Assembly (NCBI GenBank): GCA_964624405.1
Contig: CAZUXA010000004.1
Location: forward strand, 70,572-134,571
Direction of reading: 5' to 3'
Origin: an uncultured bacterium
GTDB lineage: Bacteria > Fermentibacterota > Fermentibacteria > Fermentibacterales > JCC-6
Length of the DNA: 64,000 nt
In this document: positions 51,634-56,675 of the stretch, one piece after another
How positions within the stretch are numbered: the first letter of the stretch is position 1
Layout of the letters: each line of letters begins with the position of its first letter
Position numbers and translations under genes: made by a program
Notes under the pieces: model-generated
Database searches by the model: none
What the model saw: the letters and a program-made list of their open reading frames with translations, nothing else
Told to the model about the DNA's origin: nothing

Positions 51634-52510
51634 GAGCATCGGCTCTGTCGCCTCTTCCCATTCCTGTGCCCAGCGCGATGCCGGTGATAACCAGCAGGAG
51701 ACCCAGGATGGTGGCTGGAGCTATGGGCTCTTTAACCACCAGGGCGATGACGCCAAGGCTGAGAAAAGGCGTTATGTAGATCAGTCCGCTCACCCGGGAA
51801 GCGCTGTCGCTGCGCTTAAGGGCGGTGTTCCAGAAGAGAAAGGCCACACCCATTTCGAAAAGCCCGATGTAAGAACCCCCAAGCAAAAGCTCCGTTCGAA
51901 GGGAAAAGCGCGCTCCTGTCAGCAGCCCCCAGACCAGCAGATAAGCGGTGCCGAAACAGAAATTCAGCAGAAGATTCCCCGCCACGGAACCCGAAGCTCT
52001 GGTATTGAGTATCCAGTACAGCGCCCAAACAACCGTGCTGAAAAAGGCCAGTAATACCGGAAACAACGGGATTTCTCTCAGCACGCCGCTTCCCGCGAAG
52101 GCCATGAGAACCACCCCGGAGAAACTCACAAGAATCCCTGTTGCCGCTCCGGGTTTCAACTTCTGCCCGAGCAGTGGAACCGCAAGAAGAGAAAGGGTCA
52201 AGGGCCACAGATAGTTGATAACCATGGCCACCTGGGCCGGAAGCCCGTTGTAGGCCGAAAGAAGAATCAGATAGTAAAGGAAGGGGTTCAGAAAGCCCCG
52301 CAGCGCACCGGCCGGAAGCATGCCTGCGGTGATTCTGACGCCTTTTCTGAGAACCACCGCCAGAAACACAAGGGTTGACATTATGGACGCGGCAAAGACC
52401 ACCTGCCAGGGGCTGCCGTGATCCAGCGCGAGGCTGAATGCCGACGCGGCTGTAGACCAGAGGGCTACTGCTCCCATGGCGAAAAGGATCGCAGAAGTGT
52501 TCCTGTCCAT
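51617..52510 (-). CDS. DMT/EamA family transporter
   Basis: About ten TM helices, LWST, INYLWP, YITPF. Confidence 0.88.
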
Positions 52511-52535
52511 CCGATTGAAGCGCCTCCAACGCCGG

Positions 52536-52551
52536 CCACAACATATTGTAT
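52536..52551. promoter_or_regulatory. NrdR box (distal)
   Basis: ccaCaAcATaTtGtat resembles acaCwAtATaTwGtgt. Confidence 0.55.
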
Positions 52552-52651
52552 TCCTGTGCTTTCGCAAACCGTCGACACAACCCGCGGGCAAGGGTTTCAA
52601 ATCGTCGATTGCAGGCCATAAAACCGCATATCATTGCAGAGAAACGAGATA

Positions 52652-52699
52652 GCTCTATATATAGATATTGAAGGGCGCGCTCGGCACAATATATTGTGG
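52652..52699. promoter_or_regulatory. tandem NrdR boxes upstream of nrdD
   Basis: gctCtAtATaTaGata (52652-52667) and gcaCaAtATaTtGtgg (52684-52699), 32 bp apart. Confidence 0.8.
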
Positions 52700-52767
52700 T
52701 TTCCCCCTTGACCCCGTTGTCCGTCGTGTTATCTTCGCCTTTATCAGGCACCGAGGGGGGAGGGCCA

Positions 52768-54882
52768 ATGGACTGGCTTGTCAGAAAACGTGATGGTTCG
52801 ATACAATCTTACACAAAAAGTAAAATAGAGCAGGCCATTCGAAAAGCCCTCGAGGCATCGGAAACCCCGGGGGTGGCCCGGGAAATGGCTGACCAGGTTG
52901 AAACCGCCCTTTACATGGACTTTTTCAAGGGTGGCACTATCCCAACGGTGGAACGAATTCAGGACTGCATCGAAGAAACCCTGGTACTTAGAAATCTCGC
53001 GGCGGCGGCGAAGCAGTTCATCCTCTACCGGGAAAAGCGAAATGAAGCCCGGGAGGTGGATTCCATCTTCAGCGGGGTGGACAATCTCATAGCCGATTAC
53101 CTCGGCCGGCAGGACTGGCGGGTCAACGAGAACAGCAACATGAACTACAGCCTTCAGGGGCTGAACTTCTATCTTTCCTCATCCATAACAGCCAGATACT
53201 GGCTTTCGAAGATATACACGCCCCGAATCCGCGACTTTCAGGAAAACGGCGACATCCATATTCACGATCTCGGCATACTCGGGCCCTACTGCGTAGGGTG
53301 GGATCTTCAGTCCCTTCTCCGAGACGGTTTCCGGGGAGCCAGAGGCAAAATCGAGTCATCCCCTCCCGCCCACCTCAGAACAGCCCTGGGGCAGGTCGTC
53401 AACTTCTTCTACACACTGCAAGGAGAGGCGGCGGGGGCTCAGGCCTTCAGCAACTTCGACACTCTCATGGCGCCCTTTATCCGATACGACGGACTTGACT
53501 ACAAAAGGGTCAGACAATGCATTCAGGAGTTCCTTTTCAATGTGAACATACCCACCAGGGTCGGCTTCCAGACTCCGTTCACCAACATTACCATGGATCT
53601 TCGAGTCCCGGTTACCCACCGTGATGTCAATGTAGTTGTGGGAGGCCGGGAGATGCCGGAAACCTACGGCGACTTCCAGGAGGAGATGAACCTTTTCAAC
53701 CGGGCTTTCTGCGATCTTATGATGAAGGGAGACGCCCGGGGCAGGATTTTCACATTCCCGATTCCCACCTACAATCTCACCAAAGACTTCGACTGGGAAG
53801 ACGACAGCCTTCAGCCCCTCTGGGAAATGACCGGAAAGTACGGAATACCCTACTTCAGCAATTTCGTCAACTCCGACATGAACCCGGAAGACGCCCGAAG
53901 CATGTGCTGTCGGCTAAGGCTGGACAACAGGGAGCTTCGAAGGAGGGGGGGCGGGCTGTTCGGCGCCAACCCCCTGACCGGCTCCATAGGCGTGGTAACC
54001 ATAAACCTTCCCAGAATCGCCTACATGACCCGGGGCAGCATGGAAAAGTTCGAGCAGCGTCTGGCCTCGGTGATGGAGGCTTCCCGGGAATCTCTGGAAC
54101 TCAAGCGAAAATTCATCGAGGAACTCACGGAAAGGGGGCTGTACCCCTACACCAGGCATTACCTGTCCGAGGTGCGGGAAACCTCTGGCAGCTACTGGGC
54201 CAACCATTTCAGCACCATCGGCCTTATCGGCATGAACGAGGCATGCCTGAACTTTCTCGGAGCGGGAATCTCCGCGGAGGAATCAAGGGAATGGGCTCTC
54301 CGGGTGCTGGATTTCATGAGGCAGCGGCTGGAGGACTTCCAGCACACAACGGGAAACTTCTACAACCTCGAGGCCTCTCCGGCGGAAGGCGCCAGTTACA
54401 GCCTCGCCAACAAGGATATGCAGCAGTTCCCCGGCATCATCGCCCAGGGTTGTTCCAACCCGTTCTACACCAACTCGGTCCACCTTCCGGTAAGCACACC
54501 GATGGATGTGTTCAGTCTGCTGGAACACCAGGATCCCCTTCAGGCCAAGTTCACCGGCGGTACCGTGGTGCACATCTTCATGGGAGAGTCGATTCGCGAC
54601 TGGAGGATGGTGAGAACCCTGGCGAGAAGAATCGTGAACCGGTTTCATCTGCCCTATTTCAGCTTCACACCCACCTTCAGCATATGCCCGGTTCACGGAT
54701 ATGTGGCCGGTGAGCACAACCTCTGCCCCCACCCTCACACAGATGAGGAGATGGAGCTCTACGGCGAGGTGGTAAGCTGCGCCGAATCCCTGCCGCAGGG
54801 AAGCTTCAGACGGATATCAGATGAGGAACAAGGAGTAAGACAAGGTTCTCTGTTTCTAAACATGGACAAGGTGGATATATAA
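52768..54882 (+). CDS. nrdD: anaerobic (class III) ribonucleoside-triphosphate reductase large chain with ATP cone, lacking the glycyl-radical loop
   Basis: VRKRDG ATP cone, ENSN, HIHDL, YCVGW, AGAQA, SMCCRL, GSIGVVTIN, YNLEASPAE, GGTV, TPTFSICPVHG; no RxxGY. Confidence 0.92.
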   Translation: MDWLVRKRDGSIQSYTKSKIEQAIRKALEASETPGVAREMADQVETALYMDFFKGGTIPTVERIQDCIEETLVLRNLAAAAKQFILYREKRNEAREVDSIFSGVDNLIADYLGRQDWRVNENSNMNYSLQGLNFYLSSSITARYWLSKIYTPRIRDFQENGDIHIHDLGILGPYCVGWDLQSLLRDGFRGARGKIESSPPAHLRTALGQVVNFFYTLQGEAAGAQAFSNFDTLMAPFIRYDGLDYKRVRQCIQEFLFNVNIPTRVGFQTPFTNITMDLRVPVTHRDVNVVVGGREMPETYGDFQEEMNLFNRAFCDLMMKGDARGRIFTFPIPTYNLTKDFDWEDDSLQPLWEMTGKYGIPYFSNFVNSDMNPEDARSMCCRLRLDNRELRRRGGGLFGANPLTGSIGVVTINLPRIAYMTRGSMEKFEQRLASVMEASRESLELKRKFIEELTERGLYPYTRHYLSEVRETSGSYWANHFSTIGLIGMNEACLNFLGAGISAEESREWALRVLDFMRQRLEDFQHTTGNFYNLEASPAEGASYSLANKDMQQFPGIIAQGCSNPFYTNSVHLPVSTPMDVFSLLEHQDPLQAKFTGGTVVHIFMGESIRDWRMVRTLARRIVNRFHLPYFSFTPTFSICPVHGYVAGEHNLCPHPHTDEEMELYGEVVSCAESLPQGSFRRISDEEQGVRQGSLFLNMDKVDI

Positions 54883-55034
54883 TGGAAAAGGTCAAGGCTG
54901 TAAAAACGGAAGTCTACTCCAGGGTGGTCGGTTACTATCGGCCGGTGCAGGATTGGAACAGGGGCAAGCAGGAGGAGTTCAAGCTCAGGGAGTATGTCAG
55001 CATGGAACCAGAACAGAAGGAAAAAACGGATTGA
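54882..55034 (+). CDS. stand-alone NrdD glycyl-radical domain, 50 aa
   Basis: Own translation: MEKVKAVKTEVYSRVVGYYRPVQDWNRGKQEEFKLREYVSMEPEQKEKTD; TAATG overlap with nrdD and TTGA overlap with nrdG. Confidence 0.88.
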   Translation: MEKVKAVKTEVYSRVVGYYRPVQDWNRGKQEEFKLREYVSMEPEQKEKTD

Positions 55035-55720
55035 TTCGTTCCATTGTCGGCACAAGCCTGATAGAATACCCGGGGCGAATCTGCGCCGTTCTTTTTACCG
55101 GTGGATGCAACCTGGCGTGTCCGTTCTGTCACAATCCCGAGCTTGTTCTTCCCGACCTTCTGGACAGGCAGTTTTCCATCACAGCTGATGAGCTGATCCT
55201 GGCACTTGGAAGACGGCGGGGCTTCATTGACGCAGTGGCGCTCACCGGTGGCGAGCCCCTCTTCCATGACGGAACCATCGACCTTCTACAGCGGATTCGA
55301 CGGGATGTGGGCTTGATGATCAAGCTCGATACCAACGGTACATTCCCGGACAGGCTGGAGAAAGCGCTTCCCCTTGTTGACTACATTGCCATGGACCTGA
55401 AATCCTCTCCGGCGAAGTACCCTTTGGCCACCGGAGGCCACGCGGCTTTCGAGGATGTGCGCGAAAGCATCGAACTGGTCAAAAGCGCCGAGGATTACGA
55501 ATTCAGAACCACCATGGTTCCAGAACTGGTAACACCCGAGGATGTCATGGAACTCCTCTCCATTGTGAGCCCGGTGAAGCGGTATGTTCTCCAGCAGTTC
55601 CGTCCCGGTAAAACCCTGGCGAAATCCATGAACGGGGTTAAACCATACCACACACTCCTTCTGGAGGATGTGGCGGACGACGCAAGAAACCATGCATCCG
55701 AGGTGCTGGTTCGAATCTGA
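55031..55720 (+). CDS. nrdG: anaerobic RNR activating enzyme (radical SAM)
   Basis: SLIEYPG, GCNLACPFCHN, TGGEP, KLDTNG, YEFRTT; TTG start. Confidence 0.92.
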   Translation: MIRSIVGTSLIEYPGRICAVLFTGGCNLACPFCHNPELVLPDLLDRQFSITADELILALGRRRGFIDAVALTGGEPLFHDGTIDLLQRIRRDVGLMIKLDTNGTFPDRLEKALPLVDYIAMDLKSSPAKYPLATGGHAAFEDVRESIELVKSAEDYEFRTTMVPELVTPEDVMELLSIVSPVKRYVLQQFRPGKTLAKSMNGVKPYHTLLLEDVADDARNHASEVLVRI

Positions 55721-55733
55721 CGGAGTGGGCGGG

Positions 55734-56675
55734 ATGTACCGTGTTTTTCTGCCTTCAAGCTCCAATCCGGCACAGGTTTCATTGCTTCAGGATCTTATCC
55801 CTGAAAACATCGAAGTCACCAATGAAGAAAAAAGGGTGGACATGGTCGTCTGCGGAAGACCCACACCCGCAATGCTTCAGGCCTGTTCCCCGAGGGTGCT
55901 TCTGATCCCTTTCGCCGGCGTCCCTCCGGCCACTATCGAGCTGATGAAACGGTATCCCGGAATCGGTGTTCATAATCTGCACCACAACGCCCCGGCGGCG
56001 GCGGAGACCGCCCTGTGCCTCATGCTCGCAGCGGCAAGGGGCATTACTGTGGCGGATGCGGCGCTGAGAAGGGGCGACTGGTCTGCAAGATACAATCCAG
56101 GCACCACCCTCCTGCTGGGCGGCTCCAGGGTGCTGATCCTTGGAAACGGCTGCATCGGCCGGAGGCTGCGGAGGGTCTGCGAAGCACTGGATGCAAAAGT
56201 GGATGCCATCAGGCGAACCCCCGACCCCGACCCCGCCGTCCACACACCGGAGAAGCTGCATACCCTTCTTGGTGGCGTCGATTTTCTTGTCGGCTGCCTT
56301 CCCCTTACCGCTGAAACCCGCGGCATGATAGGCTCGGAGGAGTTATCTCTTCTCCACTCCCGGTCCATTGTTGTCAATGTTGGCAGGGCTGAGGTCTTTC
56401 ACGAGGAAGCGCTTTTCAGCGCGTTGTTCAAGGGGGAGATCGGAGGCGCGGGGCTGGATGTCTGGTACCGCTACCCGGGTGACCCGTCGAACACCCTCCC
56501 TTCACGCTTCCCTTTTCACACCCTTCCCAGTGTGGTGATGAGCCCGCACAGGGGGGGCGCCTGGGGTGTTCCGGAACTGGAGAGGCAAAGAACCGAAGGA
56601 ATTGCCCGGGCAATCCGGGCCGGGGCAAAAGGCATGCCTGTTCCCCATCCGGTTTGTCTGGAACGGGGCTACTGA
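55734..56675 (+). CDS. D-isomer specific 2-hydroxyacid dehydrogenase family protein
   Basis: GNGCIG, LPLT..TRG, NVGRA, GLDVW, SPH. Confidence 0.85.
   Translation: MYRVFLPSSSNPAQVSLLQDLIPENIEVTNEEKRVDMVVCGRPTPAMLQACSPRVLLIPFAGVPPATIELMKRYPGIGVHNLHHNAPAAAETALCLMLAAARGITVADAALRRGDWSARYNPGTTLLLGGSRVLILGNGCIGRRLRRVCEALDAKVDAIRRTPDPDPAVHTPEKLHTLLGGVDFLVGCLPLTAETRGMIGSEELSLLHSRSIVVNVGRAEVFHEEALFSALFKGEIGGAGLDVWYRYPGDPSNTLPSRFPFHTLPSVVMSPHRGGAWGVPELERQRTEGIARAIRAGAKGMPVPHPVCLERGY

Follow-up and report, generated by a model that had tools for sequence, protein, structure and literature searches.

A split class III ribonucleotide reductase in Fermentibacterota: NrdD with its glycyl-radical loop on a separate 50-residue reading frame

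Introduction

Can a class III (anaerobic) ribonucleotide reductase (RNR) do its work when the glycine that carries the radical is encoded apart from the catalytic chain? This question is raised by a locus in the DNA of an uncultured bacterium of the Fermentibacterota (candidate division Hyd24-12; GenBank assembly GCA_964624405.1, contig CAZUXA010000004.1, positions 70,572 to 134,571; this stretch of 64,000 nucleotides (nt) is called the window below). Here, the gene for the catalytic subunit NrdD stops before the glycyl-radical loop, and the loop is found on a separate open reading frame (ORF) of 50 codons, directly before nrdG. In class III RNRs, the activase NrdG generates the radical on a conserved glycine of NrdD, and the NrdD glycyl loop sits in the barrel beside the finger-loop cysteine. 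Structures of single-chain NrdD are available from phage T4 (1H78/1H7A), T. maritima (4COI/4U3E) and P. copri (8P23). To our knowledge, the radical glycine lies on the catalytic chain in all glycyl radical enzymes that have been studied biochemically or structurally, with GrcA/YfiD as the one exception in spirit.

The comparative analysis described here makes it quite likely that the locus encodes an obligate class III enzyme of two subunits, the smaller of which would bear the radical, and that three polypeptides are made from an nrdD-large/small gene/nrdG operon. The pieces of such a two-gene NrdD are already in the databases, and the arrangement is kept across the whole phylum and recurs in other bacteria and in archaea. 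A description of a split NrdD was not found in the full-text literature searched (a search that did not extend to some 1.7 million PMC articles or to the majority of subscription journals).

Architecture of the locus

Three close-packed genes on the forward strand were recognized from the ORF list and its translations: nrdD-large, the small ORF and nrdG. The first (52768..54882, +) runs from an ATG at 52768 to a TAA at 54880-54882 and encodes 704 residues, with an MDWLV start that is common to its relatives. It is a class III catalytic subunit by its matches to Pfam NRDD (PF13597; residues 121-665, profile positions 1-536 of 562, E 1e-174, 582.8 bits against a cut-off of 26.2), NCBIfam NF006126 (976.7 bits, cut-off 548) and TIGR02487 (479.6 bits, cut-off 326). 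The R-V-x-G-Y glycyl-radical motif, which in the NrdD family stands at the C-terminus of the catalytic chain, is not on this polypeptide and is carried by the separate ORF instead.

The small subunit gene (54882..55034, +) encodes 50 residues, made up of the glycyl-radical loop and, after it, the NrdD C-terminal segment. Its product reads …TEVYSRVVG17YYRPVQDWNRGKQEEF…, with the presumed radical Gly17 at 54930-54932, and corresponds to Pfam NRDD positions 533-560 of 562, i.e. the last 28 (35.8 bits, cut-off 26.2). Since the large subunit covers positions 1-536 of the same profile, both products together make up one NrdD. The gene that follows, nrdG (55031..55720, +), starts with TTG and encodes a radical-SAM activase of 229 residues (TIGR02495 NrdG2, E 8e-49, 165.7 bits, cut-off 131; Pfam Radical_SAM) with the cluster motif C-N-L-A-C-P-F-C (CX3CX2C). 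The cognate activase that accompanies the NrdD family thus adjoins the small ORF.

The catalytic equipment of the large subunit is otherwise that of NrdD. An ATP-cone spans residues 5-93 (52780..53046, +; Pfam PF03477, E 1e-17), and the finger loop S-M-C-C-R-L (residues 378-383; 53899..53916, +) is of the double-cysteine MCCR type, one of the MCCR/MGCR classes distinguished in an excerpt of PMC9669993. Across 43 aligned large subunits, C380, C381, R382, L383 and the barrel cysteine C175 are invariant.

The original prediction, made from the letters alone, had described an nrdD that keeps the ATP cone and the SMCCRL loop yet ends before the glycyl loop at 54880-54882. The Pfam match and the translation confirm the former, and the NRDD match that breaks off at 536 of 562 the latter. 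It had also placed a 50-residue loop ORF at 54882-55034, preceded by AAGGTGG, overlapping its neighbors on both sides and situated before nrdG, and all of these elements were recovered at those positions.

Conservation in the phylum

A split gene in a contig assembled from a metagenome first calls for the suspicion that a sequencing or assembly error (an indel) has cut an intact nrdD in two. In favor of such an artefact stands only the general prior that assemblies contain frameshifts. The stretch was found in 20 sequencing runs, with no RNA data set listed for it, and contigs of four other runs cross 54820-54890 with zero indels; this check used contigs instead of raw reads, and one of the four runs may be the source of the present DNA. 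The single difference noted, an A>G at 54877 in one run, changes the last nrdD codon from Ile to Val.

The comparison with relatives covered 35 Fermentibacterota genomes of one order, which were all the genomes of the phylum in the sample, and six outgroup genomes. A small loop ORF is present in one copy in each of the 35 and in none of the six. The locus was inspected in 32 of the 35, and in all 32 nrdD breaks off short of the loop, which is encoded by a separate ORF that has a start of its own; in the other three, open frames of 62-173 residues surround the loop. In four loci (L012, L013, L014 and L017, of genomes G031, G026, G032 and G028), an alternative frame is open for 603-752 residues over nrdD into the small ORF, although there is no fusion; the mere length of open frames can therefore feign a fusion that does not exist. 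With 35 of 35 genomes and 32 of 32 loci, the split is more than chance. As the junctions differ between the species concerned, an artefact is given practically no chance.

A fused gene in a close relative would speak against the split as well, and none was seen in the 32 loci or in a word-indexed search of longer proteins. The latter gave 72 matches, of which the best full-length NrdD proteins reach 51 bits and belong to other phyla (named Dictyoglomaceae, Atribacterota, Aquificaceae and similar), compared to 63-103 bits for the small proteins. Of the checks that had been named beforehand, those for an indel at the junction (made on contigs), for a conserved split and for fused relatives have come out in favor of two genes.

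Translation and selection of the small ORF

Two separate genes demand two translation starts, and candidate signals for the second one are found within the end of the first. A Shine-Dalgarno (SD)-like AAGGTGG (54868..54874, +) lies 7 nt before the small-ORF ATG, inside the last nrdD codons (…D-K-V-D…), and the ATG overlaps the nrdD stop in the sequence TAATG. At the other end, the small-ORF stop and the TTG start of nrdG share letters in TTGA (55031-55034), a junction that recurs in relatives. Among 50 distinct junctions, 47 show an SD-like stretch of 4 nt or more before the small-ORF start, and 49 use ATG as this start. In most Fermentibacterota, the SD-like GGAAAGGT or AAGGTGG is located inside the codons for the conserved end of the large subunit (…G-K-V / D-K-V…), and part of the conservation at this end may serve the ribosome-binding site.

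Both ORFs could in principle still be joined into one NrdD chain by recoding, i.e. by a programmed frameshift or by read-through of the stop. The small frame is indeed open upstream of its ATG, though only for 19 codons and back to 54825, as had been predicted, and in 4 of the 50 junctions both ORFs share a frame and are separated by a stop. Over all junctions, however, the small ORF lies in the +2 frame relative to nrdD in 27 cases, in the +1 frame in 19 and in the 0 frame in those four. The distance from the first base of the nrdD stop to the small-ORF start is -5 nt (10 junctions), -1 (12), +2 (10), +3 to +8 (9) or 14-126 (9), and TGA, TAA and TAG are all used as nrdD stops. Frames, spacers and stops are too varied for any single rule of frameshifting or read-through, and the ATG and the SD-like site are conserved. 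A slippery heptamer was not seen in 54825-54880 when this stretch was read by eye. Moreover, in a fused product the metal site and the loop would be about 55 tail residues apart, compared to 3-4 residues in fused relatives. Recoding is therefore considered very improbable. Instead, the small ORF is probably initiated independently and its translation coupled to that of nrdD, as the overlaps suggest.

The codons of the small ORF look like those of a translated gene. Within the genus, its 32-codon core shows 14-16 synonymous versus 1-2 non-synonymous codon differences, and the totals over 40 distinct sequences are 523 synonymous versus 183 non-synonymous. The small ORF is under purifying selection.

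Metal site and C-terminal tail of the large subunit

In NrdD, a structural zinc site precedes the loop and is built from four Cys (T4) or from Cys/His-Cys-Cys. The large subunit of the window retains a remnant of this site, C640-P-V-H643 ... C653-P-H-P-H657 (54685..54738, +), with C640, H643, C653 and H657 as candidate ligands. In an alignment of 41 tails, the C, the P and the final H are invariant. The equivalent site of fused relatives is CxxH...CxxC (CPxHGY...CPxCG), so that the fourth candidate ligand here is a His in CxxxH spacing and not a Cys in CxxC. The chain then continues in an acidic C-terminal tail of 47 residues with a net charge of -7 (54739..54879, +). A changed metal site (CPVH...CPHPH) and a tail of roughly 45 residues had both been part of the original prediction, and both are borne out in the alignment.

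Three motifs characterize the 41 tails: H-[TS]-x-E-E-[IL]-x-x-[FY]-G, LP-E-G-S-[YF]-R and G-S-L-F-L-N-x-[GD]-K-V. One G is invariant besides the C, P and H, and E9, L23, S27 and L-F-L are near-invariant. Judged by this conservation, the tail is a new constrained element and not a relic, presumably one that docks the small subunit. No match to it was found in Pfam, and its best E-value in a profile search of the Protein Data Bank (PDB) was 0.9; a search of the ESM Atlas gave a top score of 0.81, below the meaningful level. The small protein itself gave nothing at E ≤0.01 in the PDB profile search. A word-indexed search with the tail region returned seven proteins, all of 700-704 residues.

An origin of the tail as a degenerate duplicate of the glycyl loop was also considered. 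This idea arose because HMMER places the tail segment E-L-Y-G-E-V-V on the T. maritima NrdD loop and on profile positions 650-662. It was rejected: a profile-profile comparison of the 41 tails with 49 small proteins gave a probability of 0.3%, and it is contradicted by the fused NrdD of L063, which has both a tail-like insert and a real loop. In this one-chain NrdD from an uncultured bacterium, 24 residues (C-D-K-E-H-S-E-A-E-L-K-R-Y-G…) are inserted between the metal site and the loop, and they carry the first tail motif of the Fermentibacterota. L063 sits on a long branch of the NrdD tree and may represent the state before fission. Another variant was observed in the Candidatus Aminicenantia locus L065, a split NrdD of the same clade, where all four ligand positions are replaced (S-V-S-P-T-S-G-Y…D-F-D-P-N) and the tail motifs are kept. 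Going by this sequence, the metal site may be dispensable once the tail exists.

The tail also bears on a further alternative, in which nrdD was broken by mutation and now decays, its pieces being relics, while another RNR supplies the deoxyribonucleoside triphosphates. A candidate supplier exists: a second RNR is encoded in this genome (G000:C10:21965-23377; PF02867, 428.6 bits, in an open frame of 769 residues), which is probably of class II, and a PF02867 match was obtained in 33 of the 34 other Fermentibacterota genomes. However, decay would have to explain why all 32 loci inspected, from several families, retain the break between intact ORFs, why synonymous changes dominate and the catalytic residues are invariant, why nrdG is intact and coupled, and why a new tail with conserved motifs has been gained. 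Such a decay is regarded as very improbable.

Split NrdD outside the phylum

To describe the split beyond the Fermentibacterota, 80 loci (genome_contigs) were picked by likeness to the small protein, so that the share of split forms among them is not a frequency. Of these best 80 loci, 31 are split and 44 fused, and five could not be judged: no body lies in the locus of L057, L091 and L094, and no loop was found within 400 nt in L058 and L069. The split forms differ in the region next to the cut. WOR-3 (L049, L053) and Aminicenantes (L051, L065) have a tail as in Fermentibacterota, Spirochaetota (L084, L098, L109) have only the first tail motif, and unrelated tails are present in a group with a Goldiibacteriota genome (L060, L075, L078, L095) and in an Iainarchaeum archaeon (L080). 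In the last five loci, the small protein starts with …K-C-x-x-K-T-E-V-Y-S and the large subunit keeps three ligands. The Cys in question takes the position of the fourth metal ligand of fused enzymes (C-P-x-C-G-x-x-T-E-V-Y-S), and the metal site of these five would be built from two chains.

Small loop proteins were also sought in a much larger collection. Of 1.84 billion cluster representatives, all of which were searched with HMMER, 2503 matched. Among the best 150 of these, 144 are at most 100 residues long and 145 begin with M; none has CxxC directly before the loop, 42 have the Cys of the fourth-ligand position (at -5) and 37 a Cys at -1, and 68 have no Cys within 8 residues of the loop, like the small protein of the window. 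Three of the proteins found (P0124, P0125, P0156) contain an exact tandem repeat of the loop segment, with two loops in 56-73 residues, which is either an assembly artefact or a real two-loop variant. In P0178 (170 residues), P0196 (348) and P0227 (148), the loop is joined to foreign segments, namely a thioredoxin-like stretch that matches weakly and stays below the cut-off, a domain of the peptidoglycan-binding type and a PhoH-like fragment. These three could be gene-calling artefacts or come from phage contexts. A fusion to NrdG was not found among the six longer loop proteins P0196, P0178, P0243, P0255, P0227 and P0237.

The history of the split was followed in a tree of NrdD bodies with 77 rows (43 split, 34 fused), cut before the metal site and with duplicates and rows of less than 550 residues excluded. 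The Fermentibacterota, WOR-3 and Aminicenantes forms fall in one clade of 35 rows, with a support of 95 in the Shimodaira-Hasegawa-like approximate likelihood ratio test (SH-aLRT). At least four changes between the split and fused states are needed on this tree, and at least two are forced by well-supported branches; a single clade of all split forms is not rejected by the approximately unbiased (AU) test (p 0.062). The differing cut points argue for more than one fission.

Cultured carriers and their annotation

The same architecture is found in cultured Betaproteobacteria, on large replicons. In Ralstonia solanacearum, 122 megaplasmid records were matched, of which CP052083.1 (L113) was inspected. 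It contains three consecutive genes: a 683-residue 'ribonucleoside triphosphate reductase' that ends in C-P-K-H…C-P-K-C and an Ala-rich tail, a 58-residue 'hypothetical protein' with …C-E-V-W-T-R-V-M-G-Y-H-R-P-V… that overlaps the first gene in ATGA, and nrdG. The 453-kb plasmid of Cupriavidus necator (NZ_CP066020.1, L114) encodes a large protein of 676 residues, followed after a 142-nt spacer by a gene for 66 residues and by nrdG. In the genome paper of C. metallidurans CH34, as far as its excerpt goes, NrdDG are Rmet_5137 and Rmet_5139, one locus tag apart.

These systems are thus alike in having a loop-less large gene, a loop gene for 58-66 residues and nrdG. They differ from Fermentibacterota in their large subunits, where the CxxH...CxxC site is complete and the tail is either short or rich in Ala, and their small proteins are only about 40% identical to the one described here. 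Because the cut point is different, the fission in C. necator and Ralstonia was probably an independent one.

The guess that small stand-alone NrdD pieces have already been annotated elsewhere proved right. RefSeq names the 66-residue gene of C. necator nrdD, and the 58-residue gene of Ralstonia is the above 'hypothetical protein'. In other Ralstonia records, the small gene either goes under 'anaerobic ribonucleoside-triphosphate reductase' or is absent from the plasmid gene tables, which by design do not list every gene. Where the small gene is unnamed or uncalled, as in many records, the large gene by itself can be mistaken for a full NrdD.

Proposed mechanism and comparison with known systems

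As the large subunit lacks the loop, the loop product must act in trans. In the favored two-subunit reading, the operon would be translated as three polypeptides, with the stop/start overlaps suggesting coupled synthesis. The large subunit would contribute the ATP cone, a ten-stranded barrel with the Cys-Cys finger loop, the Cys-His/Cys-His metal site and the acidic tail, while the small subunit would consist of the glycyl-radical loop and the following segment only. NrdG and S-adenosylmethionine would take the hydrogen from Gly17 of the small subunit. With the loop reaching into the large-subunit barrel across from Cys380/381, the radical would shuttle between Gly17 and the finger-loop cysteine, as it does in single-chain NrdD. 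The chemistry itself would be that of the MCCR-type NrdDs (PMC9669993, excerpt).

The two chains probably assemble non-covalently, with the acidic tail in the place of the lost peptide bond. The N-terminal stretch of the small subunit is basic (M-E-K-V-K-A-V-K), and the tail probably holds this N-terminal strand beside the metal site. That such an assembly can work is made plausible by analogy with P. copri NrdD. Its glycyl radical domain, which comprises the Zn site, the buried loop and the C-terminal tail, is highly mobile and moves as a rigid body, according to the excerpt of PMC11226230. In Fermentibacterota, the cut falls inside the equivalent of that domain, leaving the metal site on the large subunit and the loop and C-terminal segment on the small one.

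Compared to single-chain NrdD/NrdG systems, the ATP cone, the barrel, the finger-loop cysteines and the adjoining radical-SAM activase are all shared. The loop E-V-Y-S-R-V-V-G-Y...W-N-x-G-K is nearly identical to that of fused NrdD, and the mechanism is presumed to be identical. The differences are that the chain here ends between the metal site and the loop, that the loop is a separate 50-residue protein, and that the conserved acidic tail has been added. A natural division of an RNR catalytic chain over two genes has a precedent in another class: the class II RNR NrdJa/NrdJb of Pseudomonas aeruginosa is reportedly encoded by two consecutive genes and active (Crona et al. 2015 is said to have described it), with another cut site and without a glycyl radical.

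A small loop protein that acts in trans, and that is presumably activated by the activase, is also known from pyruvate formate-lyase (PFL), in the form of the cofactors GrcA/YfiD of E. coli and Y06I of phage T4 (PMC13450708, excerpt). Here too, there are differences. GrcA serves as a spare part where the enzyme already carries a loop, whereas the large subunit described here lacks one and the small protein would be obligatory. Furthermore, the small protein has 50 residues, compared to 127 for GrcA, and is encoded in an operon with overlapping stop and start. PF01228, the GrcA/PFL family, matches none of 49 small proteins at E up to 1, and PF13597 matches all 49. Judged by these profiles, the small protein is not a member of the GrcA family, and the analogy is a functional one only. 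A search with PF01228 also found no PFL-type glycyl radical enzyme in this genome, which contains one NrdD body and one loop copy. The small protein consequently has no other visible partner.

The GrcA analogy leads to a further reading, which is compatible with the two-subunit RNR and adds a purpose to it. In this case, the small subunit would be an exchangeable radical cartridge: activated off the enzyme by NrdG, docked, and replaced after O2 cleavage at Gly17, thereby sparing the 704-residue body. The oxygen-labile residue would then be placed on the cheapest possible polypeptide. As far as the excerpts of the respective papers go, the GrcA/YfiD module can be activated alone and restores the cleaved enzyme (PMC13450708), and fused NrdD, too, has a mobile glycyl radical domain (PMC11226230). 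Several observations do not fit, however. The small gene is single in this genome and in all 34 relatives, the start/stop overlap suggests roughly equimolar, coupled synthesis, and a promoter scan revealed nothing promoter-like from 53776 to the small-ORF start; together, these give no sign of an excess or independent supply of the small subunit. A phage collection searched with the small protein returned only two weak matches. An exchangeable subunit is thus possible but rather doubtful. The same tentative standing applies to this reading in full, where the 50-residue protein would be a free-standing exchangeable cofactor, with the radical loaded onto the free peptide and the peptide captured by the acidic tail.

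The original prediction had proposed a radical that is carried in trans by a small, replaceable subunit. Of this claim, the first part holds to the extent that comparative evidence allows, with a separate loop product that looks translated and must act in trans. The replaceability is unsupported, given the single copy, the coupled-looking synthesis and the promoter scan.

To return to the obligate two-subunit enzyme, several points weigh against it. Because the small protein has no metal ligand, its anchoring would rest wholly on the tail, which matches nothing in the PDB or Pfam. Furthermore, with the second RNR in this genome and in 33 of the 34 others, NrdD is not demonstrably essential. 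As for the cultured carriers, a split system probably works in vivo.

Regulatory surroundings

Upstream of nrdD, two AT-rich palindromes were noticed, CTCTATATATATAGA (52651-52666) and CACAATATATTGTG (52685-52700), 117 and 84 nt before the gene. They resemble NrdR boxes. An NrdR gene is present on contig C11 (TIGR00244, 182.6 bits), and similar ACACAATAT(A/G)TTGTG words occur upstream of nrdD in L028, L031, L037, L044 and L051. An Rfam search over 52300-55900 gave no match.

Implications

According to the excerpt of a 2026 review (PMC13450708), formate lyases are the only enzymes with known spare parts, and it has still to be established whether other glycyl radical enzymes have them as well. 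The two-piece NrdD makes this question directly testable with a minimal substrate of 50 residues, and Cupriavidus necator, with the same architecture, offers a tractable host. The arrangement bears on the recognition of the glycyl loop by the activase and on the entry of the loop into the barrel in trans, as well as on the annotation of nrdD.

It also bears on how anaerobes limit the cost of oxygen damage. If the small subunit is indeed an exchangeable cartridge, the cost of O2 cleavage would be 50 residues instead of about 700. It would then be the first 'radical cartridge' outside pyruvate formate-lyase and the smallest natural glycyl-radical protein, and class III RNR would be seen to function with a radical subunit that is not covalently attached, similar to class I with its separate radical-generating subunit.

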